Made by a program: the position numbers and the translations under genes
The notes under the pieces: generated by a model
The model's input: the letters and a program-made list of their open reading frames with translations, nothing else
What the model was told of the DNA's origin: nothing
Databases searched by the model: none
Shown: positions 10,822-59,263 of the stretch, piece after piece
How the letters are laid out: every line of letters starts with the position of its first letter
Position numbering within the stretch: position 1 is the stretch's first letter
From: Candidatus Pacearchaeota archaeon
Lineage (GTDB): Archaea; Nanobdellota; Nanobdellia; Pacearchaeales; GW2011-AR1
DNA: 64,000 nt
Assembly (NCBI GenBank): GCA_018304145.1
Contig: JAGVWU010000001.1
Span: 144-64,143 of the forward strand
Direction: 5' to 3'

Positions 10822-10883
10822 TAATATTTATAGTGAAAAACATAAATAATTGAGCAAAATCTTATGTTTTTCTCTCGACCAAA

Positions 10884-36895: not shown

Positions 36896-36925
36896 TTGTG
36901 GGGGGGTATTAATCCTTAGGATTAA
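36896..36925. repeat. TTGTGGGGGGGTA + 17-bp perfect palindrome TTAATCCTTAGGATTAA (copy A, putative recombination site)
   Basis: Palindrome at 36909-36925, preceded by a G7 run. The same palindrome recurs at 37894-37910. Confidence 0.6.
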
Positions 36926-36988
36926 GTTAGCTACATAAACCGAATAACTATAAGCTATTTTAGTTCAGGTTACGAATGGAGCGGTGAA

Positions 36989-37884: not shown

Positions 37885-37928
37885 GTTGTGGACTTAATCC
37901 TTAGGATTAACTTATCGTGGGGGCGTTT
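37885..37928. repeat. TTGTGGAC + palindrome TTAATCCTTAGGATTAA (copy B) + TCGTGGGGGCGTTT (left copy of 14-bp direct repeat)
   Basis: Palindrome at 37894-37910 and 14-mer at 37915-37928, both read directly. Lies immediately upstream of the integrase gene. Confidence 0.6.
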
Positions 37929-37990: not shown

Positions 37991-39175
37991 ATGGAAGACA
38001 TACATAATTATAAACGAAGACTTGAAAGAACTCTCGAAAGGGTAAATAAACTTGATCTCTATCCAGAAGATAAGGAATTAATTTATAGATTCAAAGATCT
38101 TTGTATCTGTCAAAATATAAGTTATGGAAAATTAGATGCTTATCTATTCTATACAATAAAACTTACAAATTTCCTTCAAAAACCAATAAAGGAAGCCAAT
38201 AAAGAGGACATAATGAATGTTATAGCAAAACTTAATGAAACAAATTATAGTGAGCAAACCAAAAAATGTTTTAAAGTTTTACTTAAAAAATTATACAAAT
38301 ATATTAGAGGTATAGAAGGTAAAGGAGAATATCCTGAAGAGGTAAAATGGATGTCAACTACAATTTCTAGAAATCATCAAAAACTGCCTGATGAACTTAT
38401 TAATGAAAACGAAATAGAAAGTATTATTAGGGCTGCTCAAAATACGAGAGATAAAGCTTTAATTTCTATTCTTGCAGAATCAGGTTGCAGAGTTTCTGAA
38501 ATAGGTCTCATGAAAATAAAAAATGTTTCATTTGAAGAATATGGGACAAGAATAGCAGTTTCAGGAAAAACGGGATCAAGAAAAATATTAGTGATAAATA
38601 GTACACCTTATTTACAAGAGTGGATTAATCAACATCCATTAAATAACAATTCTGATTCTTTTCTATGGTACAATCCATTAAATAGCAAATATCTAAGTTA
38701 TACCCGAATTACCAGTATTCTAAAAACCGCAGCAAAAAGAGCAGGAATAAAGAAGAGAATTCATCCTCATTTGTTAAGGCATAGCAGAGCAACGAAAATG
38801 GCTACGGTAATGAGTGAAGCTTCCATGAAGCAATATTTTGGATGGACTCAGGGATCTTCAATGGCAGGAGTTTATGTTCATTTATCTGGAAAAGATACTG
38901 ATGATGCCATACTCAAAGCAAATGGAATTGAAATAACAAAAAAAGAAATGATTATAACAAAAATGAAACCTATTATTTGCAATAGATGTAAAACATCAAA
39001 CGAAGCAACAAATAGATTCTGTAAAATATGCGGTCTTCCTTTAACAAAGGAGATTGCAGAAGAAACAATAAAAGAAGATTCTGAAAAGAAAAAGTTTGAG
39101 GATATATTAGAAATTGCTTTATCGGATAAAAAAGTATTAGAAATGATTAAAGAGAAGATGAAAGTAATTTTATAG
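37991..39175 (+). CDS. tyrosine recombinase / integrase (XerC/D-phage integrase family) with C-terminal Zn ribbon
   Basis: Box I ESGCRVSEI (catalytic Arg), box II HPHLLRHSRATKMA (H-x-x-R-H) and catalytic Tyr in GVYVHL. C-terminal CNRCK...CKICG ribbon. Confidence 0.8.
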   Translation: MEDIHNYKRRLERTLERVNKLDLYPEDKELIYRFKDLCICQNISYGKLDAYLFYTIKLTNFLQKPIKEANKEDIMNVIAKLNETNYSEQTKKCFKVLLKKLYKYIRGIEGKGEYPEEVKWMSTTISRNHQKLPDELINENEIESIIRAAQNTRDKALISILAESGCRVSEIGLMKIKNVSFEEYGTRIAVSGKTGSRKILVINSTPYLQEWINQHPLNNNSDSFLWYNPLNSKYLSYTRITSILKTAAKRAGIKKRIHPHLLRHSRATKMATVMSEASMKQYFGWTQGSSMAGVYVHLSGKDTDDAILKANGIEITKKEMIITKMKPIICNRCKTSNEATNRFCKICGLPLTKEIAEETIKEDSEKKKFEDILEIALSDKKVLEMIKEKMKVIL

Positions 39176-40579: not shown

Positions 40580-40849
40580 TCAATTTTCTTTATCCTCATA
40601 TATATACATCAAGAAAGGAATTCCTTCTTTTTCTCTTTTTATTTTTCTAATCCTTTTATCTAGTTCATCAAAATCTCGTGGATATTCTATTCGATAAGAA
40701 AATTTTGATCTTTTTTCTTTTAATTTTTGAAATTCGTTTATTAGATCCATTTTAAATCTAAGTACATTCCAAGCGCCTATACTTTCAGTATATGCCATTT
40801 TACCTTCAATCTCTATAATATTTTTTGGAGTTATAGCTTTCTTTTCCAT
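40580..40849 (-). CDS. small hypothetical protein
   Basis: 89-aa ORF with mixed composition. No motif recognised. Confidence 0.3.
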   Translation of the reverse strand: MEKKAITPKNIIEIEGKMAYTESIGAWNVLRFKMDLINEFQKLKEKRSKFSYRIEYPRDFDELDKRIRKIKREKEGIPFLMYIYEDKEN

Positions 40850-40956
40850 TTTCAGAGTATCACCTCTGAAATATATAATTCTTTAAATAAATTGGTGGAT
40901 ATAGTATATAACATTATAACACAACCCCTAGAGTTGCATATCCTTCGAACTATAGC

Positions 40957-40973
40957 ACAACCTAGGTGGTTGT
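40957..40973. promoter_or_regulatory. near-palindrome ACAACCTAGGTGGTTGT plus direct repeat ACACAACC(C)CTAG in the divergent promoter region upstream of the TrmB-like gene
   Basis: Read directly. A candidate operator in the 198-bp divergent intergenic region. Confidence 0.35.
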
Positions 40974-41047
40974 AGTTAAATTTAAAAATACCATCTTTCT
41001 GGTTAATTTATCCCTGTGGGAAAATGAGTTCTGTGATAATTTAGAAA

Positions 41048-41773
41048 ATGTCAAATCAAATAGAAACTTTAGATGCAAAACTACTAGGATTGAACAATTA
41101 CGAATTATCAGCTTATAAGTCATTGATAAAACTTGGTAAGAGCTCTGCGCCAGAGATAAGTAAAATTAGTACTGTTCCATATGGAAGAATTTACGATGTA
41201 TTGTATTCGCTTGAAGCTAAGGGGTATATTAAAACGATAACTGGTAAAACAAAATATTTCATTGCATCAGGTCCTAAAGAAATAATAAAACTAATTCAAG
41301 ATAAAAAGAAAGAGTTAGAGAATCTTGAAACAGAATTCGAAAAACTTGAACAAATATATGATACTAAAGAAGATGAACCAGTAATTATTGTTAAGGGTAA
41401 TAGAAATTTTCATAGAATTATCAAAGAAAAGCCTGAAGCAAAAAAATATCGTTATACAATAAAATATAATTCTGTAATAAATCCTGAATGGATTAAAGGT
41501 TATAAGAGTAAGTTAAGGAAAAAAATTGATATCAAGAATCTAGTAAGATATGATGAAAAAACAAAGAAAAATGTAATGAAATGGAAAAATGTTCTCCCTG
41601 AAATTAAAGCAATTGAAAATGAGGGAGTTGTGATGTCTTTAATTGACGATCATTATGTTATGATTGGATTGATTACTTCTAATTGTACTATTGTAATAAA
41701 AAATGAAGCACTTTGCAAGATTCTGAAAAAAATGTATCTTGCAACTTACGAAAAAGCAGAGGTGATAAAGTAA
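41048..41773 (+). CDS. TrmB-like winged-helix transcriptional regulator
   Basis: YELSAYKSLIKLGKSSAPEISKISTVPYGRIYDVLYSLEAKGYI is a TrmB-type HTH. First gene of a tightly coupled five-gene plus-strand operon. Confidence 0.6.
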   Translation: MSNQIETLDAKLLGLNNYELSAYKSLIKLGKSSAPEISKISTVPYGRIYDVLYSLEAKGYIKTITGKTKYFIASGPKEIIKLIQDKKKELENLETEFEKLEQIYDTKEDEPVIIVKGNRNFHRIIKEKPEAKKYRYTIKYNSVINPEWIKGYKSKLRKKIDIKNLVRYDEKTKKNVMKWKNVLPEIKAIENEGVVMSLIDDHYVMIGLITSNCTIVIKNEALCKILKKMYLATYEKAEVIK

Positions 41774-41774
41774 A

Positions 41775-42947
41775 ATGCAACAAAAACTTAAACAAAAACA
41801 ATCGAATCAAAATATTTCATGGAATAAATTAAGTTCAATTTCAAAAGTTTATCTTTTAGATATCTATAGAGATATTTTAGCAAATGAACAAATAAAAAAA
41901 TGCCAACTTTTGAATAATAGAGATGTTTATTTTAAAGATTCTAATATGACTTTACAAGGAACTTCTGTTTCAGGACTAAGCTCTCCGGCTATTTTAGATA
42001 GACCAATAATTTTTGATAAAAATAATTCTATCAAACAGAATCTTGATAAATTTACTTCAATTTTAGCAGAATGTTATTTAAAAAATATGAAAAATGATTT
42101 GAAAGTTTTCAAAAAAGCATTTCCTGATGATATTGAGCAATTCAGGAAAATTGGTACTTATTGGGTTGGACATATAAGTGCTAAAATGTTAGGATTAATT
42201 TTCAAGTTAGATATCGATATGGATAAACTTGATCCAAACAAATACAGAATCAATGTTCCATTTTATCAACTGATGAACAATTCTAAATATAGCAAATTAA
42301 AGAAACTATACTTAGAAAAAACTAATAATCATTCAATTAAATTTATATCAAAAAAAAGTTTTATTTTATCTGATTCAACAGGAGCAAGAGGAATTGTTAA
42401 TGACGTTAATTCAAAAGAAAGAAGTAGAATAAGAATTCTTGTTCCATCAAATGTTAATAATATTCTTTCAATAATTTCTAAATTAACTGTTAAGAAAATT
42501 AATTTATTAAAAAGCAAATATAAAGAAACTGAAAATTTAAATCTTAAATCATTGGCTTTAATCTGTAGTGATACAGATTCTCCAGAAGGAATTTATAGAG
42601 AATTGGAATGGCGTCCAATTGAGGGTTATCCCTTAACTCCTGGCTGTTTTATTCTAGGTTCAACAGGATCTTTGGATTTATATTGTTTACAAGCAAAATA
42701 TATTTACAGATTATCATTAGCTGCTCAAGAAGAAATGAAAAATAGTATAACCAGTAACATTAAAGGAAAATATACGCCTGTAGTTTGGTTCGGAGCATTA
42801 AGTCTTCACGCATTAACTGAGCATAAAATAGTTGACACTGAAAAATTATCAGAACTAAGATATGATGGAGATTATGATCCTAAAAAAGAGTTTTTACATT
42901 GGATAAATAGAGAAGGTAAAGAGTATCTTAAAGGAGATTTAAAATGA
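41775..42947 (+). CDS. hypothetical protein
   Basis: 390-aa ORF that starts 2 nt after the regulator stop, with an ATGA overlap onto the next gene. No motif recognised. Confidence 0.45.
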   Translation: MQQKLKQKQSNQNISWNKLSSISKVYLLDIYRDILANEQIKKCQLLNNRDVYFKDSNMTLQGTSVSGLSSPAILDRPIIFDKNNSIKQNLDKFTSILAECYLKNMKNDLKVFKKAFPDDIEQFRKIGTYWVGHISAKMLGLIFKLDIDMDKLDPNKYRINVPFYQLMNNSKYSKLKKLYLEKTNNHSIKFISKKSFILSDSTGARGIVNDVNSKERSRIRILVPSNVNNILSIISKLTVKKINLLKSKYKETENLNLKSLALICSDTDSPEGIYRELEWRPIEGYPLTPGCFILGSTGSLDLYCLQAKYIYRLSLAAQEEMKNSITSNIKGKYTPVVWFGALSLHALTEHKIVDTEKLSELRYDGDYDPKKEFLHWINREGKEYLKGDLK

Positions 42948-43780
42948 GAATATTAGTAATAGGTGATCTACATGGAGAATTTCCTGAGAGTGTTCGAGAA
43001 GTAATAAAAAAGGAAAAAATAGATTTAATCCTTTCAACAGGTGACTTTGCTAATTTTGATAACTATAGAAAAATAAAATTTGATAAAATAGATAAAACAA
43101 ACTTTGCTAAAAACAAAGTCAAAGATCATATTCAAAATGATGAATATCAAAAGATGATTAATGAAATTATAAAATCTATGGAAAAACCCTTAGAAGTTTT
43201 AGATTCTTTTAATATTCCTGTTTATTCAATTTATGGAAATCTTGATTATACAAACTATGAAGTTAACAAACATAAAATAAAATCTAATAGTTTAAACAGA
43301 ATTATTAAGAAATCAAAAAATATTAAATTATTCCGAGAAGGATTTGTTGATTTTGATGATTTACAAATATTATTATTTTCAGGATATAGAAAAAATTATT
43401 TAAAATATGCTCCAAAGAAAACAAAGAAAGTTGATAGATTAAATAAGGGTTGGAAAGACAGACTTTCAAAAATATTTTCACAAATCAAACCAAATAAACC
43501 AGTTTTATTTTTATTCCATGATCCTCCAAAAGATACTAAATTAGATTTGATAAATAATCCAAATAGCCCAATGAATGGAAAGCATGTTGGAGACGAGATT
43601 ATAAGAGAATTTATAGAAAAATATCAACCTCAAGTTGCTATTTGTGGACATATGCACGAAACACAAGGAACTGACCAGATAAAAAAATCTCTAGTTATAA
43701 ATGCAGGTTATGGAAGAGTCGGACAATTTTTAATTTTGGATATTAATGGTGATGAAATTAAATATGATTTGAGGAAATAA
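42944..43780 (+). CDS. calcineurin-like metallophosphoesterase
   Basis: MRILVIGDLHGEF (motif I), GDF (motif II) and GHMHE (motif V). Confidence 0.75.
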   Translation: MRILVIGDLHGEFPESVREVIKKEKIDLILSTGDFANFDNYRKIKFDKIDKTNFAKNKVKDHIQNDEYQKMINEIIKSMEKPLEVLDSFNIPVYSIYGNLDYTNYEVNKHKIKSNSLNRIIKKSKNIKLFREGFVDFDDLQILLFSGYRKNYLKYAPKKTKKVDRLNKGWKDRLSKIFSQIKPNKPVLFLFHDPPKDTKLDLINNPNSPMNGKHVGDEIIREFIEKYQPQVAICGHMHETQGTDQIKKSLVINAGYGRVGQFLILDINGDEIKYDLRK

Positions 43781-43781
43781 A

Positions 43782-44321
43782 ATGACAAAAACAAATTTAG
43801 TTTTATTGACAGGGCTTCCAGCAGCAGGAAAAAGTACAGTTGCACAGAGATTAGTTAGGGAAAATGGTTTTGCTATTTTATCCACAGATGATTTAAGACA
43901 ATCATTATTTCAGCAAACTTATGAAGAATTAGCAAAAGATGGAAAAAGAAAAGATGAAGTAGTAAGAAAGATTATTGATTATTCTAAATTACAGATTTTA
44001 GCAGCAGGTTGTGATTTGGTTATTGACTCAACTGCCCCTACAGAAAAATTCAGAAGGAGAATGTTAGAGCTACCAAAAGATCTTGAACAAACCATTAAGA
44101 AAACTATTTTATATGTAAGTGCTGGAGAATTTGTTAGAAATTCAAGACATATTTCTAGAGGAGGTTCTGGGGTTGCTTTGGAAACTATTCAAGGATTTTG
44201 GAAAGAGCCTCGAGATGGATTTTGTGGTGCTAGTTTATATTCTATTTATAATAATAGCGACAGTGATATAGGAAAATTGTATAGAGATGTTACAGATTTT
44301 TATGAGTGGTTGAAGGGATAA
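43782..44321 (+). CDS. P-loop kinase (AAA_33 / zeta-toxin / polynucleotide-kinase-like)
   Basis: Walker A LLTGLPAAGKSTVAQRL at the N-terminus and Walker B-like DLVIDST. 179 aa. Starts 2 nt after the phosphoesterase gene. Confidence 0.65.
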   Translation: MTKTNLVLLTGLPAAGKSTVAQRLVRENGFAILSTDDLRQSLFQQTYEELAKDGKRKDEVVRKIIDYSKLQILAAGCDLVIDSTAPTEKFRRRMLELPKDLEQTIKKTILYVSAGEFVRNSRHISRGGSGVALETIQGFWKEPRDGFCGASLYSIYNNSDSDIGKLYRDVTDFYEWLKG

Positions 44322-44372
44322 TTTTGGTATAAGAGTTGATAAGTTTAATAAGCCTTTATTTTATGTTTATAT

Positions 44373-45446
44373 ATGCCATCGGAATCTATTGAACATCTAG
44401 AATTGAAGCGAAAAGCGAGAGAAATCTTAACTAATAAATATGGATTTAAAGATAATGAAATAACTGAAGAATATCCTCATATTTTGTCTAATGGTGTAAG
44501 AATTGAAATTGACGTTTTCGCAAAGAATAGTAATGGATTAAAAGCGATTGAATGTGGAAGTGTTAGTAAGTTAAAATTAATTACTATGAAAAATGAATTC
44601 GGAAAAGAAAATGTTATTCATATTCCATACTCTGAAGCGGTGTTAAAATCATTATTTTATGGAGATAAAGATTTATCTTCAAAAAAACAATTACTAAAAG
44701 CAGTTTTTAATGAAGAAATTTATGAAAAATTAAAGGAAGATAAAGACTATGGGTTTCTAGAATATAATGATAAAAATAAGGATTATTTTTATATTGGAAG
44801 ATTTGAATCTTGGATGGCTTTTCCAACAAATAGAAGTATTATTGATGGCAGAAAATTAATGTATGAAATTAACTTTACTATTTCTTATATTGATAAAGAA
44901 ACCTATGAAATAACTATAAATGCTGAAACAAATGATTCTGTAAGTCAATATATTGAATTAACTGATAATACTAAAGACAAAATATTTGATGAATTAAAAA
45001 AATTACCTTCAAATTTTTTTACTCAAGATGGAATAAAATTCAAAACTGAAAAGAGAAGACTTCCACCTTTACCGAGAAATTGGGAGGTTACAGAACCTAC
45101 CCCCTGCAATCAACTAACAAAGGAAAAATTAATAGAAATAGAGAATAGATTAAAGTGGTATTTAAGCGAAGGTGGAAAATTTGAAGAATATCCAATACTT
45201 TCATTGGTAAGAATAAATGTTAGAAAAAAAGATTTAGCAAAAACCTTACTTATATTAAAGCCCATTTATTTACTATCATTTAAGTTTAAAACAAAAAAAG
45301 AAGAAAAAGCCGTTCATGATAGTTTGGAATCATTAAAACAGAGAAGGAATGCAATATTAAGTGGATTTATTCCAGAAGCAACACAAGAAGAATATGAAGA
45401 CCTTGAAGTTCAAATAGCAAAGATGCAAAAAGAATTAGATGAATAG
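44373..45446 (+). CDS. hypothetical protein (N-terminal region possibly restriction-endonuclease-like)
   Basis: 357-aa ORF. The N-terminal ~80 aa contain RIEIDVFAK ... AIECGS, which weakly resembles a PD-(D/E)xK core. Not secure. Confidence 0.4.
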   Translation: MPSESIEHLELKRKAREILTNKYGFKDNEITEEYPHILSNGVRIEIDVFAKNSNGLKAIECGSVSKLKLITMKNEFGKENVIHIPYSEAVLKSLFYGDKDLSSKKQLLKAVFNEEIYEKLKEDKDYGFLEYNDKNKDYFYIGRFESWMAFPTNRSIIDGRKLMYEINFTISYIDKETYEITINAETNDSVSQYIELTDNTKDKIFDELKKLPSNFFTQDGIKFKTEKRRLPPLPRNWEVTEPTPCNQLTKEKLIEIENRLKWYLSEGGKFEEYPILSLVRINVRKKDLAKTLLILKPIYLLSFKFKTKKEEKAVHDSLESLKQRRNAILSGFIPEATQEEYEDLEVQIAKMQKELDE

Positions 45447-45450
45447 AATA

Positions 45451-46020
45451 TTATTCTTCCACTTTATTACCTCTCCAAAAATAAAGGTCTAGATAGCATC
45501 TATCACAGTTATATTCTTCGTTTGAAACTTGCTTAGCAAATTTTTGTAAATTATAGCTGTCTTCTTTTATTAAACTCTTAATATTATTCCATCTTAATTT
45601 TATTCCTTTTTGTTCTGCCATCTCAACTAATTTCTTTGCATTTGGATTGTCTAAAGGAACTTCTAAAAAAGGAATTATTTTATTTAACCCATACTCTTTA
45701 GAGAGAAATATATCGTGTGAAGACTGAAATAAGAATATGTTCAACGCTTTTCTTGCTATTCCCCAGCTTTTAGAATGAATTTTTTCTTTCAGAAGATTAG
45801 TCTGTTCATCTAGTTTATTTAAAAAATCAGATTCAGATAAAGTATTATTAAAAATATTGAGGTCAAAACTTTTTAGAAATTCTCTTGTTAAGTTTATTGT
45901 TCCAGTAGGTTGTCCTCGTAAGGTGGATGGACCTATTGAAATGTTTGATATTCTTTTTTGAACTAACTTTATAAATGATACCATTTTAATTATTCTTCCA
46001 TCTCTTCCCAAGCACACCAT
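45451..46020 (-). CDS. hypothetical protein (last gene of the R-M-linked operon)
   Basis: 189-aa ORF overlapping the upstream Cas4-like gene by about 30 nt. No motif recognised. Confidence 0.35.
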   Translation of the reverse strand: MVCLGRDGRIIKMVSFIKLVQKRISNISIGPSTLRGQPTGTINLTREFLKSFDLNIFNNTLSESDFLNKLDEQTNLLKEKIHSKSWGIARKALNIFLFQSSHDIFLSKEYGLNKIIPFLEVPLDNPNAKKLVEMAEQKGIKLRWNNIKSLIKEDSYNLQKFAKQVSNEEYNCDRCYLDLYFWRGNKVEE

Positions 46021-46661
46021 TCACATTCTCCATGCTCATGTTTTCTAGGACAAGGTCCATTAAGTAGTTTAATTGCTTTCTTCCAAATGTTCTCGGCGTT
46101 TTTTACATCTATTTTCATCTTAACAAGTTTAGTCTCGAAGATTACTTCTCCAGTTTCCTTGACTTCTTTTGGATAATAAAACAACAAGAAAGAATAATCT
46201 TCGGTTTCATAACCATTTTCCCTAAAAAGATAGTTGTAAAAATCAAGTTGGTTTTGATAATGTTTGTGTGTATCTTCCTTTAATGGAAACCCACGAGTTT
46301 TATAATCTAATATAATTATTTTCTTGCCTTTTGTTAAAAGATTGTCTATTGCACCGTGCAATATGTTACCTTCATTGTCCTTAATTGAAATACCTTTGAA
46401 GTTGCTTCTCCAAACTTTAAGCAACTCAACATCATTAAACAAATTACAGTCTTTGCATTCCTTGTTTTCTCGAAGTTCAGGGGGAAGTTTACCTTTCTCC
46501 ATAAATTTATCAAAATGCTTTTTTAGAATTGCATCCATTCCACTTGGAAGGGATGGGAATATTGTATCTGGTCTTTTTTTCTCTTTATTATAATGCAACC
46601 AGAAACATCTAGGGCAATCTTCTATTAAGGATAAAGATGATGGTGAGAGTTTATATGGCAT
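45990..46661 (-). CDS. Cas4/RecB-like PD-(D/E)xK nuclease with Fe-S Cys cluster
   Basis: N-terminal Cys (CPRCFW). Motif II GAIDNLL, motif III IIILDYKT (D-x-K) and a tyrosine-containing Q/Y-type motif. C-terminal CPRKHEHGECEWC supplies three further Cys. This arrangement is characteristic of Cas4/AddB-type nucleases. Confidence 0.55.
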   Translation of the reverse strand: MPYKLSPSSLSLIEDCPRCFWLHYNKEKKRPDTIFPSLPSGMDAILKKHFDKFMEKGKLPPELRENKECKDCNLFNDVELLKVWRSNFKGISIKDNEGNILHGAIDNLLTKGKKIIILDYKTRGFPLKEDTHKHYQNQLDFYNYLFRENGYETEDYSFLLFYYPKEVKETGEVIFETKLVKMKIDVKNAENIWKKAIKLLNGPCPRKHEHGECEWCAWEEMEE

Positions 46662-46662
46662 T

Positions 46663-47772
46663 TTATTTATTATCTGTTGCTGTAAGAAATTTTTTTAATG
46701 TTTCTCCTCTTTCTTCGGCTTTTTTAGAAAGAACTTCGGATAAAGCATTATTTTTCAATTGAGGTATTGCGATTTTTATTTTTTCTCCCATTTCAACTCT
46801 AATCATTTTATTTATAATGTCTTTTTCTATCATTGGTGCTTTACTATACATCGATATAATAGAATATTTGTTTTGTAATATATTGCCTCTATCTTCGTTG
46901 CATTTGATAAATTTACAGTTTAATCCATAATTTATATAATTTTTATAAACTGTTTCTTTTTCAACTAAATGCCAATTCATTAAATCTATGTTAAATAAAT
47001 CATTCCACTCTTCATAATTAAAATCTTTTTTCATTGAAAGTGGTATACTCATCTCTATAGATTTCAGATATTTACTCGAAGAAATTAAGAAATTAAGTGG
47101 GTTGTTATAACTTCTACCCCTTTCTTTTAATTCTTTAAGATATGCTCTTAAATCTTTGTCTTTATGACCAAAAAATGTATCATCATCTCCTTTTATTATT
47201 TCAGGTGTTATGAATATTTTATCATCCTTCTCTTTTAATGCCCAAAGAAATAAATTATATTTTATCTCTTTTGCCTTTGAAGTTATTTCAGTTACACAAG
47301 GTTTTTGAGTTGCTAAAACAAATTCTTTATCTATAATATCTCCAACTAAACTTTTATAAAAATCTAATATTCTCATTCTTCTACCCTCGATAGTATTAGT
47401 AATTTCTATATTCTCAACAACTTCTTTTGAATATTCTTTTAAACCATTCATAATAGAAATTGCATTATGTGCTGATACACCTTCTTTTACACTTATAAGA
47501 ATTATATTTTTATTTCCATATAATAAAATATCAAAATTCTTTTCTTTGAAAAAAAATAAGGGTTCTGTCCTAACAAATTTAATAGGAGAATCATTTGAAT
47601 TAAAAGCAAAAATAATTATACCAATATCATTTATTTCACTACGATTAACTGCTATCTGACTATGAATGCTTCCCTCATATTCTTTTGATAATTTAGCTCT
47701 CATATCATCAACTTTCTTTTTAAGAATAATCTTCATTTTCTTACTGTTCTCGGAATTTATTTTGGAACTCAT
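46663..47772 (-). CDS. hypothetical protein
   Basis: 369-aa ORF tightly coupled to its neighbours (2-nt spacing on both sides). No motif recognised. Confidence 0.45.
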   Translation of the reverse strand: MSSKINSENSKKMKIILKKKVDDMRAKLSKEYEGSIHSQIAVNRSEINDIGIIIFAFNSNDSPIKFVRTEPLFFFKEKNFDILLYGNKNIILISVKEGVSAHNAISIMNGLKEYSKEVVENIEITNTIEGRRMRILDFYKSLVGDIIDKEFVLATQKPCVTEITSKAKEIKYNLFLWALKEKDDKIFITPEIIKGDDDTFFGHKDKDLRAYLKELKERGRSYNNPLNFLISSSKYLKSIEMSIPLSMKKDFNYEEWNDLFNIDLMNWHLVEKETVYKNYINYGLNCKFIKCNEDRGNILQNKYSIISMYSKAPMIEKDIINKMIRVEMGEKIKIAIPQLKNNALSEVLSKKAEERGETLKKFLTATDNK

Positions 47773-47773
47773 T

Positions 47774-48829
47774 TTAGTATATTATCTTTGTCAATTGGTC
47801 TATTTTTTCAGTAAGAAATCTGTGAAATCTTACTATAGAAACAAAACTTGATTTATATTTTGGGATAATTGTAAATCTCTTTCCGTCTGAAGTCATTGAA
47901 AATATATTTCCTTTCTGTTCATCAACAACATTTGAACTAAAAATAACCGAACCCTCTTCTAATTTAGTATTGTAAACACTAAAATTATTTTTTTCCATCA
48001 CTGTTAAAAACTCACGAAATTCTTCAAATGAAATGTCTTTTTCTATTTCAAAAATCACCTGTTTAGTTTCAAGAATTTCTCTACCATTTTCTTTTTTAAT
48101 ATCCATTTTTGCACTTTCCATCTCTTGATTATCTTTTATGACCATTTCTATAAATCTTTCAATAATATTATTCAAAAAATCCTCTACTTTTCCATAATAT
48201 AATGTATAATACCCTCTCTTGTTTATTTTGAATTTAAATGAATTTGGAATAACAAACTCGATAGCTTGTGGGAGAACACCATATACAAATCTCATTTCTT
48301 CAAAAGCTGTTTTGGCATCATCTCCTGTATATTCTATATCTCTATAGAACATAGGTCTCTTACATTCCTGTTTACCCATGTCCACTTTTTTACCGTGGAA
48401 GTAAGTCATATAACTTCCTTCAATCTTTAATATAATATCCTTCAAGTTATCAAAATAAGAGGGAGGTAGCCATAAATAGTATACATTTGGAATATTGTCT
48501 ATAATTCCAAATAGAGTTCTATACAAATCACTAATTCCATTAAAAGTGAAGATAAAATAAATTTCTTTATATTTTGAATGCCTTAATAAGTAATAATCTA
48601 CTTCACGGTTCTCTTTATGTAACTGATATATTTTTGAAAAATGAATTATTTCTCCAAAGGAGGAATTATCTATTATAAATTCATTTTCTTCTAATTTCTC
48701 ATAAATTGAATCTAATTCATCATTTAAAAAAATAGTAATTATTTGTAAATTTTTATTATTATCCTTTAAAGTATCATTACAAAGACCACAGAATGAACTT
48801 GCAGAATATTTTTGAATTGGTAATTTCAT
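47774..48829 (-). CDS. hypothetical protein
   Basis: 351-aa ORF, first gene after hsdR (100-bp gap). No motif recognised. Confidence 0.45.
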   Translation of the reverse strand: MKLPIQKYSASSFCGLCNDTLKDNNKNLQIITIFLNDELDSIYEKLEENEFIIDNSSFGEIIHFSKIYQLHKENREVDYYLLRHSKYKEIYFIFTFNGISDLYRTLFGIIDNIPNVYYLWLPPSYFDNLKDIILKIEGSYMTYFHGKKVDMGKQECKRPMFYRDIEYTGDDAKTAFEEMRFVYGVLPQAIEFVIPNSFKFKINKRGYYTLYYGKVEDFLNNIIERFIEMVIKDNQEMESAKMDIKKENGREILETKQVIFEIEKDISFEEFREFLTVMEKNNFSVYNTKLEEGSVIFSSNVVDEQKGNIFSMTSDGKRFTIIPKYKSSFVSIVRFHRFLTEKIDQLTKIIY

Positions 48830-48929: not shown

Positions 48930-51923
48930 TTACTTTTTATTCAGCCTCTTGTACACTTTATCTAGCATCCAGTCTTTGACAGTTTCTGCAAAATCTTTGT
49001 CATCCATTATTTTCTTAAATATGTCTTGATTTTGCTCCATACGGTCTATAACCTTATTGATAAATACATCTTGAAAACCATATTTAAAGTTCTCAACAGA
49101 ATTTGTTTTTGCTTGTTTTGAAAGTTTTTCGTCAGCAACAAGTTCTTCTTCAATTTGGTCAAAAAATAGTTTATCTGCTTCTGTAAAATCTGTTCCAAAC
49201 CTTTCATTTAAAATCTTAATTATTTCTGAAAGTTTTGCATATTCTTCTTTTTCTTCTCTTACCCCTGCAGTATTAAGTGGTTTTAACCATCCTTCTTTTC
49301 CTTTTTCTAGTGATATACTTCCCTCATTTATTTTTTGAAGTCTGTAATATTCTAATGCAACTTCATCACCAAGTTTAAATCTTTCAGATAAATCTTTTCT
49401 AGGCAGTTTATTTACTAATAATCTTCCATAAGCATAAAACTTTTCTAAATCACTGTCTTGAAAAGGCATAATTTGGGATAAAAAAGAATATACTCTTAAG
49501 AAAACAGTCAACATATGTTTAAATTCCTCTTGTTTTTCTGTTTTATCTATTGCTCTAAATCTTGAAACTGCTGGGTCTATATACGAGTTTAATAATGAAT
49601 GGTCTTTAATTGATTGATATTTTGCTGATTTAAAAAACACTTTACAGAAGTTTTCGACATCTAACTTATCAATAACCCCTCTTTCTTCTATCTTATATTT
49701 TAAGTCATAGAGTTTATTTGGGTCTGTTGTTTCTTCAAGGAGTGTAATCTCATAATAGGGTTGGAAAGCATTAATTATATCTGAATCATCATTTACAAAA
49801 TCTAAAATAAAGGTATCTTCTTTTCCCGGACAAGTCCTATTTAATCTTGATAGAGTTTGAACTGCTTTTATTCCTGATAACTTTTTATCCACATACATAG
49901 TATGCAGAAGTGGTTGGTCATAACCTGTTTGATATTTATCAGCAACTAACAATAATTGGTATTCATTAGTATTAAATTTATCAGGAAGTTCTTTTTCACC
50001 AAACTGATTCATTTTTGGTTCTGTATATTCTTTTCCATCTTTTACTATTCCTGAAAATGCAACAATAGCCTTGATGTCGTTATATTTATTCTTTTTAAGA
50101 TAATCATCAAATTCTCTCTTGTACCTAACTACGTGAAGCCTTGAAGGAGTAATAACCATTGCTTTTGCCTTACCTCCAATTTTTTTCATTGTAACTTGTC
50201 TAAAATGCTCTATCATAACTTCTGTTTTTTGTGCGAGATTATGAGGATGTAAAGCAACAAATCTTGCTATCGCTCTTTTTGCCTTTTTCTTGTTTATTTT
50301 TGGGTCATCTTCGATTTGTTTGGATAATCTAAAGAAAGTTTGGTAGGTTGTATAATTTTTAAGAACATCTATAATGAAACCCTCTTCTATTGCCTGCCTC
50401 ATAGAATATAAATGAAATGGTTCTGGCTTTCCAGTTATTTTGTTTTTAACACCAAAAATTTCAAGGGTTTTTGCTTTTGGTGTTGCAGTAAATCCAAAAA
50501 AACTTAAATTTTTATGCATCCCTCTTGCTTCCATAGATTTTCTTATTTCATCTTCTGTATCTACTTGTTTTTCTAGTTCTGTTGAATCTTTTTTTATTGC
50601 TTCATCAAAATCTTTATAACTCAAGACTTCTTTCATTTTTTTAGATGCCTCTCCACCTTGTGAAGAGTGTACTTCATCTATAATCAGAGCATAATTTCTT
50701 TTTGGAAGTTCACCTATTGTTTCAATAATATAGGGGAATTTCTGTAAGGTTGTTATAATAATTTTTGTTCCAGACTTTAATGCTTCAGATAGTTGTTTGG
50801 AATTTTTATCTATTTTTTCAACTACTCCTTTTTTATGCTCAAACTGATAAATAGTATTTTGAAGTTGTTGGTCTAAAACTAATCTATCAGTAACTACAAT
50901 AATTGAATCAAATACAGGTTTGTCTTTTTTATTGTGCAAACTTGATAATCTATAAGCAAGCCACGCAATAGAATTACTCTTGCCACTTCCTGCTGAATGT
51001 TGAATCAAATAGTTTTTTCCAGTTCCATTTTCTTTTGTATCTGCCTCTAATTTTAGAACACAATCTAATTGATGGTAACGAGGAAAAAGCATTGATTCTT
51101 TTTTTATTGTTTTTCCTTCAATCTTAAATTCTTCAATTTGGATGTGCATAAACCTTCCAACAATATCCATAAAACTATCTCTCTCTAAAATTTCTTCCCA
51201 TAGATAAGAAGTTTTGTAACCTTTGGGATTTGAGGGATTTCCAGCACCATTTTCAAAGCCCTTATTAAATGGCAAGAACTTAACATCTCCTTCAAGTTTT
51301 GTTGTTAAAAAAATATTATCTGTATCAACAGCAAAATGAACTAATGCTCTTTTCTTAAACTGGAATATTAATTCATTGGGGTCGCGATCTTCTTTGAATT
51401 GTCTTTTTGCATTTTCAACATCTTGTCCTGTAAATTGATTTTTTAATTCAATTGTAGCGATAGGCAGTCCATTAATTGAAATCAACATATCAAGAGAATT
51501 TTCATTCTTCAAGCTGTATTTTACCTGTCGTGTCAAGGTCAACTTATTCATCTGATATAATTTTTCTGTCTGGGGATTTAACCCACTCGCAGGTCTAAAA
51601 AAAGCAATCTTAAATCTTACCCCATAATCAATAATTCCATTTCTTAAAACATCAAGTGTACCTCTGCTATCAAGTTCCTTAACTAATCTTTGTAAGAATT
51701 TTGTTTCAACATCTACTCTATGAATACCAGATAGTTTTTTCCATTCATTTGGTTGACTTTCTTTAATAAAAGAAAAAAGAACATTTGTATCCAATGCAAT
51801 TTCTTTATTGAAATCTTTTGCATTTCCTTTAAGAAAACCACCTTTATCTTTACCTGTTAAAAAATCCTCTATAGCTGTTTCAAAAGCTTTTTCATTTGTT
51901 ATTGACACCATCTTTTTATTCAC
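48930..51923 (-). CDS. hsdR: Type I restriction enzyme R subunit
   Basis: SF2 helicase motif I QHSAGSGKSNS and motif II IIDEVH. 997 aa. N-terminal nuclease region. Overlaps the hsdS 3' end. Confidence 0.85.
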   Translation of the reverse strand: MNKKMVSITNEKAFETAIEDFLTGKDKGGFLKGNAKDFNKEIALDTNVLFSFIKESQPNEWKKLSGIHRVDVETKFLQRLVKELDSRGTLDVLRNGIIDYGVRFKIAFFRPASGLNPQTEKLYQMNKLTLTRQVKYSLKNENSLDMLISINGLPIATIELKNQFTGQDVENAKRQFKEDRDPNELIFQFKKRALVHFAVDTDNIFLTTKLEGDVKFLPFNKGFENGAGNPSNPKGYKTSYLWEEILERDSFMDIVGRFMHIQIEEFKIEGKTIKKESMLFPRYHQLDCVLKLEADTKENGTGKNYLIQHSAGSGKSNSIAWLAYRLSSLHNKKDKPVFDSIIVVTDRLVLDQQLQNTIYQFEHKKGVVEKIDKNSKQLSEALKSGTKIIITTLQKFPYIIETIGELPKRNYALIIDEVHSSQGGEASKKMKEVLSYKDFDEAIKKDSTELEKQVDTEDEIRKSMEARGMHKNLSFFGFTATPKAKTLEIFGVKNKITGKPEPFHLYSMRQAIEEGFIIDVLKNYTTYQTFFRLSKQIEDDPKINKKKAKRAIARFVALHPHNLAQKTEVMIEHFRQVTMKKIGGKAKAMVITPSRLHVVRYKREFDDYLKKNKYNDIKAIVAFSGIVKDGKEYTEPKMNQFGEKELPDKFNTNEYQLLLVADKYQTGYDQPLLHTMYVDKKLSGIKAVQTLSRLNRTCPGKEDTFILDFVNDDSDIINAFQPYYEITLLEETTDPNKLYDLKYKIEERGVIDKLDVENFCKVFFKSAKYQSIKDHSLLNSYIDPAVSRFRAIDKTEKQEEFKHMLTVFLRVYSFLSQIMPFQDSDLEKFYAYGRLLVNKLPRKDLSERFKLGDEVALEYYRLQKINEGSISLEKGKEGWLKPLNTAGVREEKEEYAKLSEIIKILNERFGTDFTEADKLFFDQIEEELVADEKLSKQAKTNSVENFKYGFQDVFINKVIDRMEQNQDIFKKIMDDKDFAETVKDWMLDKVYKRLNKK

Positions 51924-53250
51924 TCCTTAAATCAATTTTACCTGTGACTGCCTCGTATATCAATGAAGTCTTATACTCATTTAATAGCTCTATCTCTTTT
52001 TCTATTTTACTAACGGTTTTATCTATTTTAGAGGTTTCGGTTTCAATGTAATATACAATTTGTTGTTGCTCTGGAAGGGGTGGAATAGGAATAAATATCT
52101 CTTTAACATTACTGCTATTTAAATGTGGATGGAGAGCTCCTGTTTGTATAGATTTTAAACTATGAAATCCAAAATTAGAATTTAAAAGAAAGGAAAAGAA
52201 TTTGCTATTAATAGTCTTTTTAGGTGTAATTAAAATAAGTGCGTGGCAATTACAACCTACAAATTCTTCATTTACTACTGCTACTTGACCAATATCCCCA
52301 GTTTGTACAATTAAAATATCATTTTTTTGTAAAATAGACCTTGAATGTTCATTTGACCATTCTTCAGAAACATAATAAGGATGATTGAATATAATTTGAT
52401 TGTTTTTAATATGCAATGATTGTATATATCTTATTCCCTTATCTTTTAGAATGTCTCTCGTTGGACCAACATAACCATTTGTAATTTTATCGCAAATCCT
52501 ACTAATTATTGAAGTTTCCCACTTTTCAGGTATAAATCCAATCCATTCTATTCCTGAATCTTTCATTTTTGCTTTTGTATTAATACCTTTTGTTACAGAA
52601 TTATTAATTAAAGATTGTCTTTTTTCTTTTAATAATTCAATTAATTTTTCTTTTTTAGAAACTAATTTTTCAATAAATAAAGTATATTTATCAAGATATT
52701 TTGATATTATTTCTTGTTCTTTAAGTGGAGGTAATATTACCAAAGCATTTCTAAATTCATCTCTACCCAAAATTTGTCTTGTAGTTCCCTTACAATTAGC
52801 AGAAAAATAAAAAAGAACATTAGGATTATTACACAAATATTTTTTATAAGAATGATTGACTTCATTTTTAAATTCAAATCTTAAAACGTGATAACTAAAT
52901 ACAGTATTGGGTAATTCACAATCAATAACAGCTGATAGTCCAATATCTATTTCTGTTTCAGAACTGGGGGTAAATATTAAATCTCCTTTTTTAACAGGAT
53001 GTTTTTCTTTTTGTTCTTCTGATACAGAAACAACCATATATTCCCTTTTATCATCTAAAACTTTATCCTTATTTCCATAAATATTCATATAATTAATCAT
53101 TTTTACTAACGGTTGATTGGGCAGTGTTTTTTTATCTATACCACTGGATGAAAATTTACCAATATTTCCTAATCTTGTCACATCCCAATCTTCAGGTATT
53201 TTTCCAACCCAATTAATTAAAGAATCCTTGTATTTTGGATATGGTTTCAT
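51916..53250 (-). CDS. hsdS: Type I restriction-modification specificity subunit
   Basis: Two target-recognition halves, each followed by a conserved LPPL(K/P)EQ(E/Q)xI repeat. N-terminal INWVGKIPEDWDV is typical of HsdS. Confidence 0.75.
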   Translation of the reverse strand: MKPYPKYKDSLINWVGKIPEDWDVTRLGNIGKFSSSGIDKKTLPNQPLVKMINYMNIYGNKDKVLDDKREYMVVSVSEEQKEKHPVKKGDLIFTPSSETEIDIGLSAVIDCELPNTVFSYHVLRFEFKNEVNHSYKKYLCNNPNVLFYFSANCKGTTRQILGRDEFRNALVILPPLKEQEIISKYLDKYTLFIEKLVSKKEKLIELLKEKRQSLINNSVTKGINTKAKMKDSGIEWIGFIPEKWETSIISRICDKITNGYVGPTRDILKDKGIRYIQSLHIKNNQIIFNHPYYVSEEWSNEHSRSILQKNDILIVQTGDIGQVAVVNEEFVGCNCHALILITPKKTINSKFFSFLLNSNFGFHSLKSIQTGALHPHLNSSNVKEIFIPIPPLPEQQQIVYYIETETSKIDKTVSKIEKEIELLNEYKTSLIYEAVTGKIDLRSE

Positions 53251-53251
53251 T

Positions 53252-54973
53252 TTATTTAATGATTTCTTTCATCATACCTTCAGTTTGTTTTTCTAATTCT
53301 AAAATATCTTTCTTTATTTGTTCAAGAGTTCTTAAAGGTTTAAATTCGTAGAAATATTTTGTAAAGCTTATTTCATATCCTTTTCTTGTTTTTGTTTCAT
53401 CAATCCAAGCATCAGGATTATAGGGTAAAACCTCTCTTTCGAAATACTTTTTTATATCTTCTTTAAGAGGAACATTTTCTGTATCTCTTAAATCTGAGTC
53501 TGATTTAGGTTTACCATTTTTATCTTTAACGACCTTCCCATTTTCAATCAAAGGTCTTTCAACTGTAATTTGCCAATATCCAAAATCCTCATTATCAAAA
53601 ATCTTACAATATTTATTTTCCTTGAAATCTCCATAGATATTTGTTATTTCTTCAATATGATTTTTTCCAATCTCATTTCTTTTGTTGCCTAAACTTTTTT
53701 TCATCTTATTATAAAAACTAATAGCATTAATCAATTGAACCTTTCCTTTTCTTTCTTTAGGTTTCCTATTTGTAACAATAAAAACATAAGTAAAAATCCC
53801 AGTATTATAGAAAAGTTGGTCAGGCATAGCAATAATTGCTTCAAGCCAGTCATTTTCAATTATCCATTTTCTTATATCACTTTCCCCACTTCCTGCACCA
53901 CCTGAAAATAATGGAGAGCCATTAAAAACAATACCAATTCTTGAACCACTATTTGAAGGTTTCATTTTAGAAATCATATGTTGCAAGAATAATAAAGAGC
54001 CATCACTGATTCTCGGAAGTCCTGCACCAAATCTTCCCTCAAATCCATTTTCTTCATACTCATTTTTAATCTGCTTTTCAACTTTTTTCCATTCAACTCC
54101 GAAAGGTGGATTTGAAAGCATATAATCGAACTTTTCATTTATTAACCCATCATTTGAAAAAGAATTTCCAAGAATAATATTTGACATATTCTGCCCTTTA
54201 ATTAACATATCAGATTTACATATAGCATAAGATTCAGGATTAAGTTCCTGACCAAAAACCTCAAGTCTTGAATCTGGATTAAATTCACGCAAATATTCTT
54301 CTGCAATGGATAACATTCCACCAGTTCCACAGGCAGGGTCATATAGCGTCTTGACAATTCCTTCTTTGGTAAGTATATCTTTATCATCCATAAACAAAAG
54401 ATTAACCATAAGTCTTATTACCTCTCTAGGTGTAAAATGCTCTCCTGCTGTTTCATTAGATAGTTCTGAAAACTTCCTAATCAACTCTTCAAAGATATAA
54501 CCCATCTGAATGTTGTTAACCTTACTGGGATGTAAATCAATTTCAGAAAACTTTTGTATAATCAGGTAAAGCAAGTCTGCCTCATCTAATTTGTTGATGT
54601 GTTCTTCAAATCCAAAGTGTTCTATTATCTCTCTTGCATTATCTGAAAATCCGTTTATGAAATCTTTAAGGTTTGCGGCAATATGTTCAGGGTCGGATTT
54701 AAATTTTTCAAAAGTGAACTTGCTCTTGTTATGAAAGTTTAACCCTGCAATGTTGTTCAATACTGGGTCTATGTTTTGAATTTTCTTTTCTTTTATTTTT
54801 GGAAGATAATCCAAGACCTTTTGTTTGGTTGGTTCAAGAACACAATCCAGCCTTCTTAAAATTGTTAGGGGAAGAATTACTTTGCCATAGTCTGCCTGTT
54901 TATAATCACCTCTTAATAAATCTGCAACACTCCAGATAAAGTTCGCTAAATCATTTACTTTTATTTGTTCCAT
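53252..54973 (-). CDS. hsdM: Type I restriction-modification N6-adenine DNA methyltransferase subunit
   Basis: N-terminal HsdM domain (FIWSVADLLRGDYK), SAM motif I DPACGTGGML and catalytic NPPFG. Start placed at MEQIKVNDL. The upstream ORF start at 55039 is less likely. Confidence 0.85.
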   Translation of the reverse strand: MEQIKVNDLANFIWSVADLLRGDYKQADYGKVILPLTILRRLDCVLEPTKQKVLDYLPKIKEKKIQNIDPVLNNIAGLNFHNKSKFTFEKFKSDPEHIAANLKDFINGFSDNAREIIEHFGFEEHINKLDEADLLYLIIQKFSEIDLHPSKVNNIQMGYIFEELIRKFSELSNETAGEHFTPREVIRLMVNLLFMDDKDILTKEGIVKTLYDPACGTGGMLSIAEEYLREFNPDSRLEVFGQELNPESYAICKSDMLIKGQNMSNIILGNSFSNDGLINEKFDYMLSNPPFGVEWKKVEKQIKNEYEENGFEGRFGAGLPRISDGSLLFLQHMISKMKPSNSGSRIGIVFNGSPLFSGGAGSGESDIRKWIIENDWLEAIIAMPDQLFYNTGIFTYVFIVTNRKPKERKGKVQLINAISFYNKMKKSLGNKRNEIGKNHIEEITNIYGDFKENKYCKIFDNEDFGYWQITVERPLIENGKVVKDKNGKPKSDSDLRDTENVPLKEDIKKYFEREVLPYNPDAWIDETKTRKGYEISFTKYFYEFKPLRTLEQIKKDILELEKQTEGMMKEIIK

Positions 54974-55110
54974 ACCCAAACACCTATTATTATTACTATA
55001 ATAGGTTCTATTTAAAGTTATTTTAGACCATTTAGCCACCTAGTGCAAAGCTTTGCTTCTTATGGCGGCTTTTTTATATTTTTTGTTAATTTTATATTAT
55101 ATAAAATGGA

Positions 55111-58932: not shown

Positions 58933-58933
58933 T

Positions 58934-59263
58934 TTAATTTCCTAAAATCAGCTTAACCACAAAAGGAGCTGCCCAGATAACCATCAGACCTATGATAACA
59001 TACATTACCATATTTTTTGCTTTCTCTCTTTTTCCTGGATCTGATCCACTCATTATATAAGTGATTCCAGCAAACAACAATACTAGACCTGCAATCATTG
59101 TGACTGCATATTTTACAAGGTCGTAAATTGTTTGTAATGGTTTTAGTATTTGGTCAAAATCGCTATTTGATGCAGCTAAAATAAAACTAATCTGAAACAA
59201 AAGCAATACAAATAAAAAACAATAAATCAACAATGCTTTGTTTTTTGGTTTTCCTTGTGCCAT
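58934..59263 (-). CDS. VirB2/TrbC-like pilin-like small membrane protein
   Basis: About 110 aa with an N-terminal signal/TM segment, a mature region and a second hydrophobic helix (MSGSDPGKREKAKNMVMYVIIGLMVIWAAP). This topology matches TrbC/VirB2 pilins. Confidence 0.4.
   Translation of the reverse strand: MAQGKPKNKALLIYCFLFVLLLFQISFILAASNSDFDQILKPLQTIYDLVKYAVTMIAGLVLLFAGITYIMSGSDPGKREKAKNMVMYVIIGLMVIWAAPFVVKLILGN

Follow-up and report, generated by a model that had tools for sequence, protein, structure and literature searches.

The 64,000-nucleotide stretch analysed here (the window), from contig JAGVWU010000001.1 of a Candidatus Pacearchaeota archaeon, carries a four-gene operon encoding a TrmB-family regulator, a 390-aa protein, a metallophosphoesterase (MPE) and a P-loop kinase. 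Together with a small divergent gene directly upstream, this cassette recurs in diverged contexts among DPANN archaea, and purifying selection acts on each of the five conserved genes; the cassette is therefore genuine and far from a chance arrangement. What is new here is a very rare protein family, that of the 390-aa protein, within a conserved, uncharacterised and well-delimited operon. It is tentatively proposed that the operon serves a pathway, controlled by the TrmB-like protein, that tailors or salvages a small substrate bearing phosphate.

All four operon genes lie on the plus strand. The TrmB-family gene (41048-41773; 241 aa) comes first and is followed by the genes for the 390-aa protein (41775-42947), the binuclear MPE of the Metallophos_3/aq_1956-like type (42944-43780; 278 aa) and the kinase of the T4 polynucleotide kinase (Pnk)/PSTK/AAA_33 type (43782-44321; 179 aa). 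From the first to the fourth gene, the junctions read TAA-A-ATG, an ATGA overlap and TAA-A-ATG, and a Shine-Dalgarno (SD) motif stands ahead of each of them (GAGGTGAT, AGGAGA and GAGGAAA). The window as a whole is AT-rich (GC 0.25-0.34). A sequence-only reading of the window had described a coupled operon of five genes, the fifth encoding a 357-aa protein. All five open reading frames (ORFs) are present with the coordinates and lengths that it gave, and its assignment of a TrmB helix-turn-helix domain, a metallophosphoesterase and an AAA_33 kinase agrees with the profile searches. The proposed single transcriptional and functional unit is upheld for four of the five genes by their tight junctions and SD motifs, but the coupling stops there and leaves the 357-aa gene outside.

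The 357-aa gene (44373-45446, plus strand) is separated from the kinase gene by a 51-nt AT-rich spacer, lacks an SD motif and is missing from the diverged copies of the cassette; the unit is therefore a four-gene operon. A TATA-like TTTAATAA is found about 25 nt 5′ of its ATG, and the spacer, the missing SD motif and this TATA-like element together suggest that the gene has its own, possibly leaderless, transcript. When related loci were screened with the window proteins, the 357-aa gene proved to be restricted to contigs identical to the window (L001 and L002) and was absent from L003/L004, L005, L006 and L015. Correspondingly, its earlier casting as a partner in the system is not borne out, as the gene is missing from all four diverged cassette copies. 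The 357-aa protein has no family in Pfam, NCBIfam, PADLOC or PHROG and no relative among the viral contigs searched. Its C-terminal part gives a sub-threshold match to HEPN_MAE_28990 (0.012), and matches to Csm3 were set aside as chance-level. Judged by eye, an N-terminal E...EIDVF...ECG pattern resembles that of a PD-(D/E)XK nuclease.

Relatives of the 390-aa protein were traced to their contigs, and all of these loci were screened with the window proteins. Five diverged DPANN contexts emerged: the window (identical to L001/L002), L003/L004/L013, L005, L006 and L015. Each of them has the order divergent gene (87-94 aa), TrmB, 390-aa protein, MPE and kinase, so the adjacency of kinase and MPE with the 390-aa partner is indeed conserved elsewhere. 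The flanks vary, and include an integrase, a reverse transcriptase with an AAA_5 ATPase, type I restriction–modification (RM) genes, Fic/Macro/LemA genes and polysaccharide genes. Pairwise synonymous divergence (dS) ranges from 0.4 to saturation, and the ratio of nonsynonymous to synonymous divergence (dN/dS) is 0.03-0.33 overall for the five conserved genes. The 390-aa gene, at 0.06-0.11, is the most constrained of the cassette; the TrmB and MPE genes lie at 0.03-0.15, and the kinase and divergent genes at about 0.1-0.3, the divergent gene by itself at about 0.2.

In some contexts, extra genes are slotted between the core genes without loss of tight coupling. In L003, a 194-aa S-adenosylmethionine (SAM) methyltransferase gene stands between the 390-aa and MPE genes, and its product best matches the carboxyl O-methyltransferases BioC, Mtf2 and Tam. 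An identification of this enzyme as Hen1 was rejected, there being no Hen1 model among its matches. L015 (2569-7994) has one extra gene per junction: the TrmB gene is followed at once by one for a 219-aa HExxH protein, and the other two encode an unknown protein of 215 aa and a protein of 277 aa whose bacterial sigma-70 region 4 domain (4.3e-11) is unusual for an archaeon. Also in L003, a 174-aa metallophosphoesterase gene (10404-10928, minus strand; PdeM-like at 1.9e-7, below cut-off) is convergent to the kinase gene, and LemA and Macro-domain genes come next.

The divergent gene encodes an 89-aa protein in the window (40580-40849, minus strand) and is the immediate upstream neighbour of the TrmB gene in each of the five contexts, with phmmer matches of 1e-22 to 1e-58. 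The earlier reading overlooked this gene and the promoter region that it shares with the operon, both of which are conserved. Its product is 45-82% identical among orthologues and has no family match in profile searches, PHROGs included; a strong and conserved SD motif, AGAGGTGATA, is found on the gene's own strand. The idea that the 89-aa protein is a LysW-like carrier or a RimK-type substrate was rejected because its C-terminus is not conserved.

The divergent promoter/operator region (40850-41047) contains the palindrome CACAAC-N7-GTTG twice (40920-40936 and 40956-40972), a TATA-like TTTAAAAA at about 40981-40988 and an SD motif, GTGAT, preceding the ATG of the TrmB gene. In an alignment of the five loci, the region is 66% identical overall, and the palindrome, TTTAAAAA and both SD motifs are kept. 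The palindrome pattern has three matches in the window, two of them in the promoter region, where 0.23 would be expected in the whole window. It is a candidate operator for the TrmB-like protein.

The TrmB family comprises metabolite (sugar)-sensing regulators. Its characteristic winged-helix DNA-binding domain is found at the N-terminus of the 241-aa protein (PF01978, 6.4e-17; 61.6 bits against a cut-off of 25.6). NCBIfam models of TrmB, TrmBL1 and TrmBL2 match at 1e-10 to 1e-15, with 40-57 bits against equivalog cut-offs of 500-650, and span only residues 11 to 124, 166 or 202. In common with the archaeal TrmB, TrmBL1 and TrmBL2, it has a TrmB winged helix, and the promoter region of its gene contains a palindrome as candidate operator. 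Unlike them, the protein is about 100 aa shorter than TrmB, and no recognisable match to the C-terminal sugar-binding effector domain was found with the NCBIfam equivalogs.

The 390-aa protein is identical to the hypothetical protein J4429_00250 of Candidatus Pacearchaeota archaeon. Its family is very small, with 12 relatives in 5.8e9 clusters and 20 representatives among 1.84e9. It has no family in Pfam, NCBIfam, PADLOC or PHROG and no sequence match in the PDB, and no relatives were detected in plasmids (tblastn), viral contigs (pattern scans) or BFVD. A 16-sequence alignment revealed 19 invariant positions: E38, K41, G62-T63-S64, K137, D200, N228, D266, D268, P289-G290, G295, R312, S327, P335, R362-Y363 and E372. 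These residues are mainly acidic, small or polar, and the pattern appears enzyme-like. No KxDG-like motif is among the invariant columns, no ligase family was matched up to an E of 10 in Pfam, NCBIfam or the PDB sequences, and neither nucleotidyltransferase ligases nor RtcB gave a match.

An AlphaFold2 model of the 390-aa protein built from the 16-sequence alignment, which includes distant representatives, reached a mean predicted local distance difference test score (pLDDT) of 82 and a predicted template modelling score (pTM) of 0.86; an earlier model from 12 close sequences was too poor (pLDDT 52). In a Foldseek search of the PDB, the top five matches were all Archaeoglobus fulgidus CofE, none of them strong (E 0.044-0.45, probability up to 0.72, TM on target up to 0.44). 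An hhalign comparison with the CofE profile was non-significant (probability 0.5%, P 0.11) but collinear through the CofE hallmark motifs. The profile comparison was run three times, with one FbiB sequence, with an actinobacterial profile and with a profile to which A. fulgidus CofE belonged; as none of the three was significant, the link to CofE is a lead and not a family membership. Similarly, none of 16 family members matched PF01996 or a TIGR model at E up to 10, and membership of the CofE family is not demonstrable for the 390-aa protein. From the model, it is probably a remote CofE-fold ligase dependent on nucleoside triphosphate (NTP) and metal.

CofE, the N-terminal domain of FbiB and chlamydial FolC2 (COG1478, PF01996) are GTP- and Mn-dependent gamma-glutamyl ligases of cofactors, and theirs is the sole fold to which the 390-aa model has matches, all of them weak. 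In the alignment with CofE, the motifs run in the same order: S-x-K, D-S/T, L-x-P-x-N/D, D-T, G-x-x-G, a P-hydrophobic strand and then G. In the non-significant alignment, D266 and T267 stand opposite CofE D150 and T151, and the invariant D200 is beside the GxDxSN motif that holds D109; in A. fulgidus CofE, D109, D150 and T151 are reportedly metal ligands of the metal/nucleotide site. In contrast to CofE, which is shorter by about 140 residues, the 390-aa protein has a helix at its N-terminus and an inserted helical segment of about 40 residues. No F420 (cofC/cofD/cofG/H) or folate genes were found in the window or the related loci inspected, and a DPANN host is not expected to make F420. Enzymes of the CofE family differ in the cofactor that they glutamylate, which may be F420 or, in Chlamydia, folate (PMC1971073).

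The genes that accompany distant relatives of the 390-aa protein are consistent with amide chemistry, as these relatives adjoin acyl-amino-acid hydrolases. A short subfamily (313-340 aa, 25-34% identity) has an AstE/AspA-type (aspartoacylase-like) zinc deacylase gene immediately upstream in three independent loci (L008 952-2719; L014 6990-10172; L017 7110-8897). The deacylase of L014 (Woesearchaeota) has aspartoacylase as its best NCBIfam match (1.9e-19), and an M20 ArgE/DapE deacylase gene is found downstream of the 390-aa relative in that locus. SAM methyltransferase genes adjoin relatives in L003/4, L009/10 and L025, and the family member P0014 comes after a SAM methyltransferase. The cluster of P0015 (L025), which encodes an AAT-like/methyltransferase fusion, a DUF4910/M28-like protein, an AMP-binding enzyme, an N-acetyltransferase, NeuB and DegT, reads as a nonulosonic-acid or sugar-modification cluster. 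By their annotations, the neighbours of the distant relatives belong to small-molecule amide/carboxylate chemistry, and none appears related to nucleic-acid ends. As an observation in its own right, the deacylase and the short 390-aa relative form a conserved, unannotated ligase–hydrolase pair in DPANN genomes.

The kinase matches AAA_33 (6e-16), and its nearest solved relative is the kinase domain of phage T4 Pnk (3.2e-6; residues 6-153 against 4-152). K17, S18, D36, R39, R122 and R126 align with T4 K15, S16, D35, R38, R122 and R126; these catalytic residues are invariant in all five orthologues, and both the GxxxxGKS P-loop and a DDLRQS motif (DDYRQS in T4) are present. Arg38 of T4 Pnk contacts the 3′-phosphate of the terminal nucleotide. 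Among phage families, phrog_505 ('polynucleotide kinase') matches at 5.3e-15, and a tblastn search of phages matched 26 records, the 15 listed being Pnk/PseT-type, ATPase or unnamed genes. The NCBIfam ranking places PSTK first (1.8e-8), followed by P-loop homoserine kinase, adenylate kinases and bacterial Pnkp (TIGR04075, 1.6e-4, matching the kinase only), all far below their cut-offs. From these comparisons, the protein is classed as a Pnk/PSTK-like AAA_33 kinase. The resemblance to polynucleotide kinase noted earlier is thus supported by T4 Pnk, PHROG and phage matches, and clear homology to a metabolic kinase was not found in the profile searches.

Relation to a zeta toxin, which had also been suggested, is not supported. 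The Zeta_toxin profile (PF06414) scores 18.6 bits (E 0.0014), below its cut-off of 22.3, and no epsilon-like antitoxin gene stands beside the kinase gene, which is preceded by the MPE gene; neither finding indicates a kinase of a zeta-type toxin–antitoxin pair.

The kinase points to polynucleotide or nucleotide substrates, and its resemblance to T4 Pnk bears on the proposal that the operon is a split system for healing and sealing RNA or DNA ends, an analogue of Pnkp/Hen1 or of T4 Pnkp with Rnl. In such a system, the kinase would convert a 5′-OH to a 5′-phosphate, the MPE would convert a 2′,3′-cyclic phosphate or 3′-phosphate to a 3′-OH and the 390-aa protein would be a new sealing enzyme. An optional methyltransferase would mark the junction, and the target would be tRNA or rRNA that a ribotoxin or an anticodon nuclease had cut. 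Besides T4 Pnk as best solved relative, with its catalytic residues invariant, and the PHROG match, this proposal draws on the listed phage matches of Pnk type, several of which adjoin RNA ligase genes. The restriction to Pnk-type matches is partly a composition effect, as the phage database holds few other AAA_33 kinases, and in the NCBIfam ranking bacterial Pnkp comes after PSTK, a P-loop homoserine kinase and the adenylate kinases. Like T4 Pnkp (PseT), the kinase aligns with the whole kinase domain and conserves the catalytic set, including the DDxRQS motif; unlike PseT, with which it shares 26-35% identity, it lacks a DxDxT (HAD) phosphatase domain, an MPE being encoded instead by a gene of its own, and no Rnl-type ligase is found near the cassette.

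A kinase beside an MPE mirrors Pnkp, which is a further point for end healing. The MPE matches PF00149 (Metallophos, 1.6e-19), PF14582 (Metallophos_3, 9.8e-19) and phrog_1649 (1.2e-17); its match to YfcE is weak. Its nearest solved relative is aq_1956 (2yvt, 1.6e-7), itself of unknown function. The motifs of the binuclear centre are intact (GD8xH10G, GD34, GN99LD, H192 and GH236xH238) and read GDLHG, TGDFAN without DRG, and GNLD without His. The MPE of Pnkp is of the lambda-phosphatase type, defined by GDxHG, GDxxDRG and GNHE, and the MPE of the cassette does not show this set; it falls in the Metallophos_3/aq_1956 group. The earlier comparison of the phosphoesterase and kinase with a Pnkp-like pair therefore stands for the kinase, which is Pnk-like, and fails for the MPE, which has GNLD instead of GNHE.

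The comparison with Pnkp/Hen1 of Clostridium thermocellum can be made gene by gene. As in that system, a Pnk-type kinase stands beside a binuclear MPE and a third, ligase-like enzyme in one unit, the P-loop, Asp and Arg set of the 5′-OH polynucleotide kinase module is present at sequence level and one variant operon has a SAM methyltransferase. Unlike the fused domains of Pnkp/Hen1, the cassette genes are separate, in another order, archaeal and preceded by a TrmB regulator within the operon. Furthermore, the third enzyme looks CofE-like and lacks the adenylyltransferase signature and lysine nucleophile of the Pnkp ligase module, no methyltransferase is encoded in the window operon that could correspond to Hen1 and the methyltransferase of the variant is not Hen1. 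As three of the four defining features are lacking, the cassette is not a Pnkp/Hen1 member, and its likeness to kinase–phosphoesterase–ligase cassettes is one of logic only.

For end healing there remain the SAM methyltransferase gene between the 390-aa and MPE genes in one variant and the type I RM loci near the cassette in three contexts, such loci being classical partners of anticodon nucleases. Against it stand the 390-aa protein, without a match to nucleotidyltransferase ligases, RtcB or a KxDG-type lysine motif and with relatives that keep company with deacylases, methyltransferases and a sugar cluster; the MPE of the GNLD group; the L003 methyltransferase, which is not Hen1-like; and the recurrence of the TrmB/MPE pair with a kinase of another fold, described below. 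End healing is accordingly judged rather unlikely. A bolder form, in which the 390-aa protein founds a new class of CofE-like-fold, NTP-dependent ligases acting on nucleic-acid or nucleotide substrates, would make the cassette an unknown archaeal end-healing/sealing or nucleic-acid-modifying system that protects against ribotoxins or restriction on conjugative DPANN elements. This would be a decidedly improbable outcome.

The same kinase and MPE could instead serve nucleotide salvage from RNA breakdown, converting 3′-nucleoside monophosphates (3′-NMPs) or oligonucleotides into 5′-NMPs for an archaeon unable to make nucleotides. The kinase would phosphorylate the 5′-OH, the MPE would remove the 2′,3′-cyclic or 3′-phosphate and the 390-aa protein would be accessory. 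T4 Pnk accepts nucleoside 3′-monophosphates, the cassette kinase is Pnk-like, and DPANN archaea depend on scavenged building blocks, all of which would fit. A 31%-identical MPE homologue in another Pacearchaeota contig adjoins genes for metallo-beta-lactamase (MBL)-fold and DHH phosphoesterases, which would also fit. Nucleotide salvage nevertheless leaves the most conserved gene, that for the 390-aa protein, and the methyltransferase variant unexplained, and gives no reason for the restriction to a rare mobile cassette. It is considered very improbable.

The reading as a small-molecule pathway is slightly favoured over end repair or defence, not least because the TrmB/MPE pair recurs elsewhere with an unrelated kinase. 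In L024 (1529-5882), from another metagenome-assembled genome (GCA_964591655.1), a full-length TrmB homologue (45% identical, 8e-73) is divergent from an operon encoding a HAD hydrolase, a kinase of the aminoglycoside phosphotransferase (APH) fold, a full-length MPE homologue (30% identical) and a LAGLIDADG-like 334-aa protein. These genes lie among housekeeping genes such as CDC48 and GatD. The combination of TrmB, this MPE clade and a kinase thus appears to recur, in one example, with a non-homologous APH-fold kinase, and the APH fold is known for small-molecule and protein substrates. Four features, namely the ligase-like enzyme, the family of the regulator, the type of methyltransferase and L024, speak for a small molecule.

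On the proposed reading, the cassette is an accessory operon that regulates itself and is borne as cargo by an integrative element of the conjugation type in a Pacearchaeota-like DPANN archaeon. The TrmB-like protein would bind the palindrome between its own promoter and that of the 89-aa gene and let go on a small-ligand signal. A single polycistronic, translationally coupled mRNA, as read from the gene junctions, encodes the three enzymes, which may share one phosphate-bearing small substrate that is nucleotide-linked, sugar-linked or cofactor-like and scavenged from the host. The Pnk/PSTK-type kinase would phosphorylate a hydroxyl next to a phosphate, and the MPE would remove or cleave a phosphoester. 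With an NTP and a divalent metal, held at D200, D266 and T267, the 390-aa enzyme would activate a carboxylate and join it in an amide bond, for example by adding glutamate. Variant operons would add tailoring genes, among them the carboxyl-type SAM methyltransferase, the HExxH protein and others, and the payoff would be a trapped or modified salvaged metabolite.

Several points weigh against a small-molecule pathway. The best relatives of the kinase are polynucleotide kinases, and Arg39, the equivalent of T4 R38, is kept. The statistics behind the CofE link are weak (a Foldseek E of 0.04, an hhalign P of 0.11 and no sequence match in Pfam, NCBIfam or the PDB), no candidate substrate-supplying genes are linked to the cassette and the L024 parallel is a single example, with MPE homologues in L012 and L023 lacking a kinase neighbour. 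In most contexts, moreover, the cassette lies in integrase- and RM-rich variable regions, where defence genes accumulate. The operon is a good target for biochemistry, with no surprising mechanism so far. If its function were established, a very rare enzyme family, which may extend the CofE ligase fold beyond cofactor glutamylation, would gain a role. It would also become clear which kind of enzymatic cargo is spread by the integrative elements of genome-reduced DPANN archaea that bear a type IV secretion system, the cargo being either a pathway for host-metabolite salvage or tailoring or a new repair or defence chemistry.

The surroundings of the cassette bear on defence. In the window, an integrase gene (37991-39175; PF00589, 9.3e-24) lies beside housekeeping genes, and an archaeal proteasome/SBDS/exosome/Rpb6 cluster is found upstream of the cassette. 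Downstream come a four-gene minus-strand cluster, a complete type I RM system (48930-55039), a VirB4/TraC-like ATPase, pilins and a DNA methylase. The gene for the ATPase, a 995-aa protein that matches the TraG P-loop (1.6e-24), and two pilin genes of the TrbC/VirB2 type occupy 55140-59305 on the minus strand. A variable region with integrase, type I RM, VirB4/TraC-like ATPase and pilins suggests an integrative, conjugative-type element in a DPANN archaeon, and the location on a mobile element proposed earlier is well supported by these genes. No convincing direct repeats of an attachment (att) site bound the element in the window, no tRNA or Rfam element was found there and a literature search on DPANN conjugative elements returned nothing informative.

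This neighbourhood points weakly to an anti-virus or abortive-infection module expressed from the element's regulator operon, in the manner of lambda cI-rexAB. On infection, the kinase or the ligase-like enzyme would modify or deplete a nucleotide or a host or viral component, with the MPE as antagonist or reset. An integrase gene stands beside the cassette in three of five contexts, genes for type I RM, reverse transcriptase, AAA_5 ATPase, Fic, Macro and PD-(D/E)XK proteins lie nearby and the HExxH and sigma-70-region-4 genes of L015 exemplify a modular variation typical of defence loci. Among PADLOC models, the unvalidated candidate PDC-S10 matches residues 172-255 only of the MPE (6.5e-13), and VakA matches the kinase weakly (4.9e-5); a literature search on PDC-S10 and VakA returned nothing informative. 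No complete match to a validated defence system was found in PADLOC-DB v2, which matched neither the 390-aa nor the 357-aa protein; the PADLOC matches are to unvalidated candidates or are weak and partial. The sub-threshold Zeta_toxin match, the L024 homologues of TrmB and MPE among housekeeping genes, the polysaccharide-synthesis neighbours in L005 and the absence of 390-aa relatives from the viral contigs, plasmids and BFVD searched also speak against defence, which is judged unlikely. RNA repair and abortive infection, both raised by the sequence-only reading, are thus possible but not the best-supported explanation, as the 390-aa protein lacks nucleic-acid-ligase features and no validated defence system is matched.

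The tightly coupled minus-strand cluster of four genes at 45451-48829 adjoins hsdR and is a candidate defence module. It encodes a 351-aa protein (Pfam AF_0896_M; phrog_24372, 4.8e-27), a 369-aa protein with a sub-threshold DUF1024 match, a 223-aa stand-alone Cas4-like PD-(D/E)XK nuclease (6.9e-15) and a 189-aa protein whose gene overlaps that of the nuclease by 31 nt. At the other side of the cassette, a 456-aa minus-strand ORF is convergent to the integrase gene and overlaps its 3′ end by 29 nt (39147-39175). This ORF occurs only on window-identical contigs, L003 and L015 having other or no genes at that place. Just before the integrase gene, near-identical copies of a 21-nt palindromic motif, TTAATCCTTAGGATTAA-, lie at 36909-36929 and 37894-37914, at both ends of a gene for a 288-aa ChaN/Cofac_haem_bdg-like protein. 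The pair of motifs could be a terminator pair or a recombination site.

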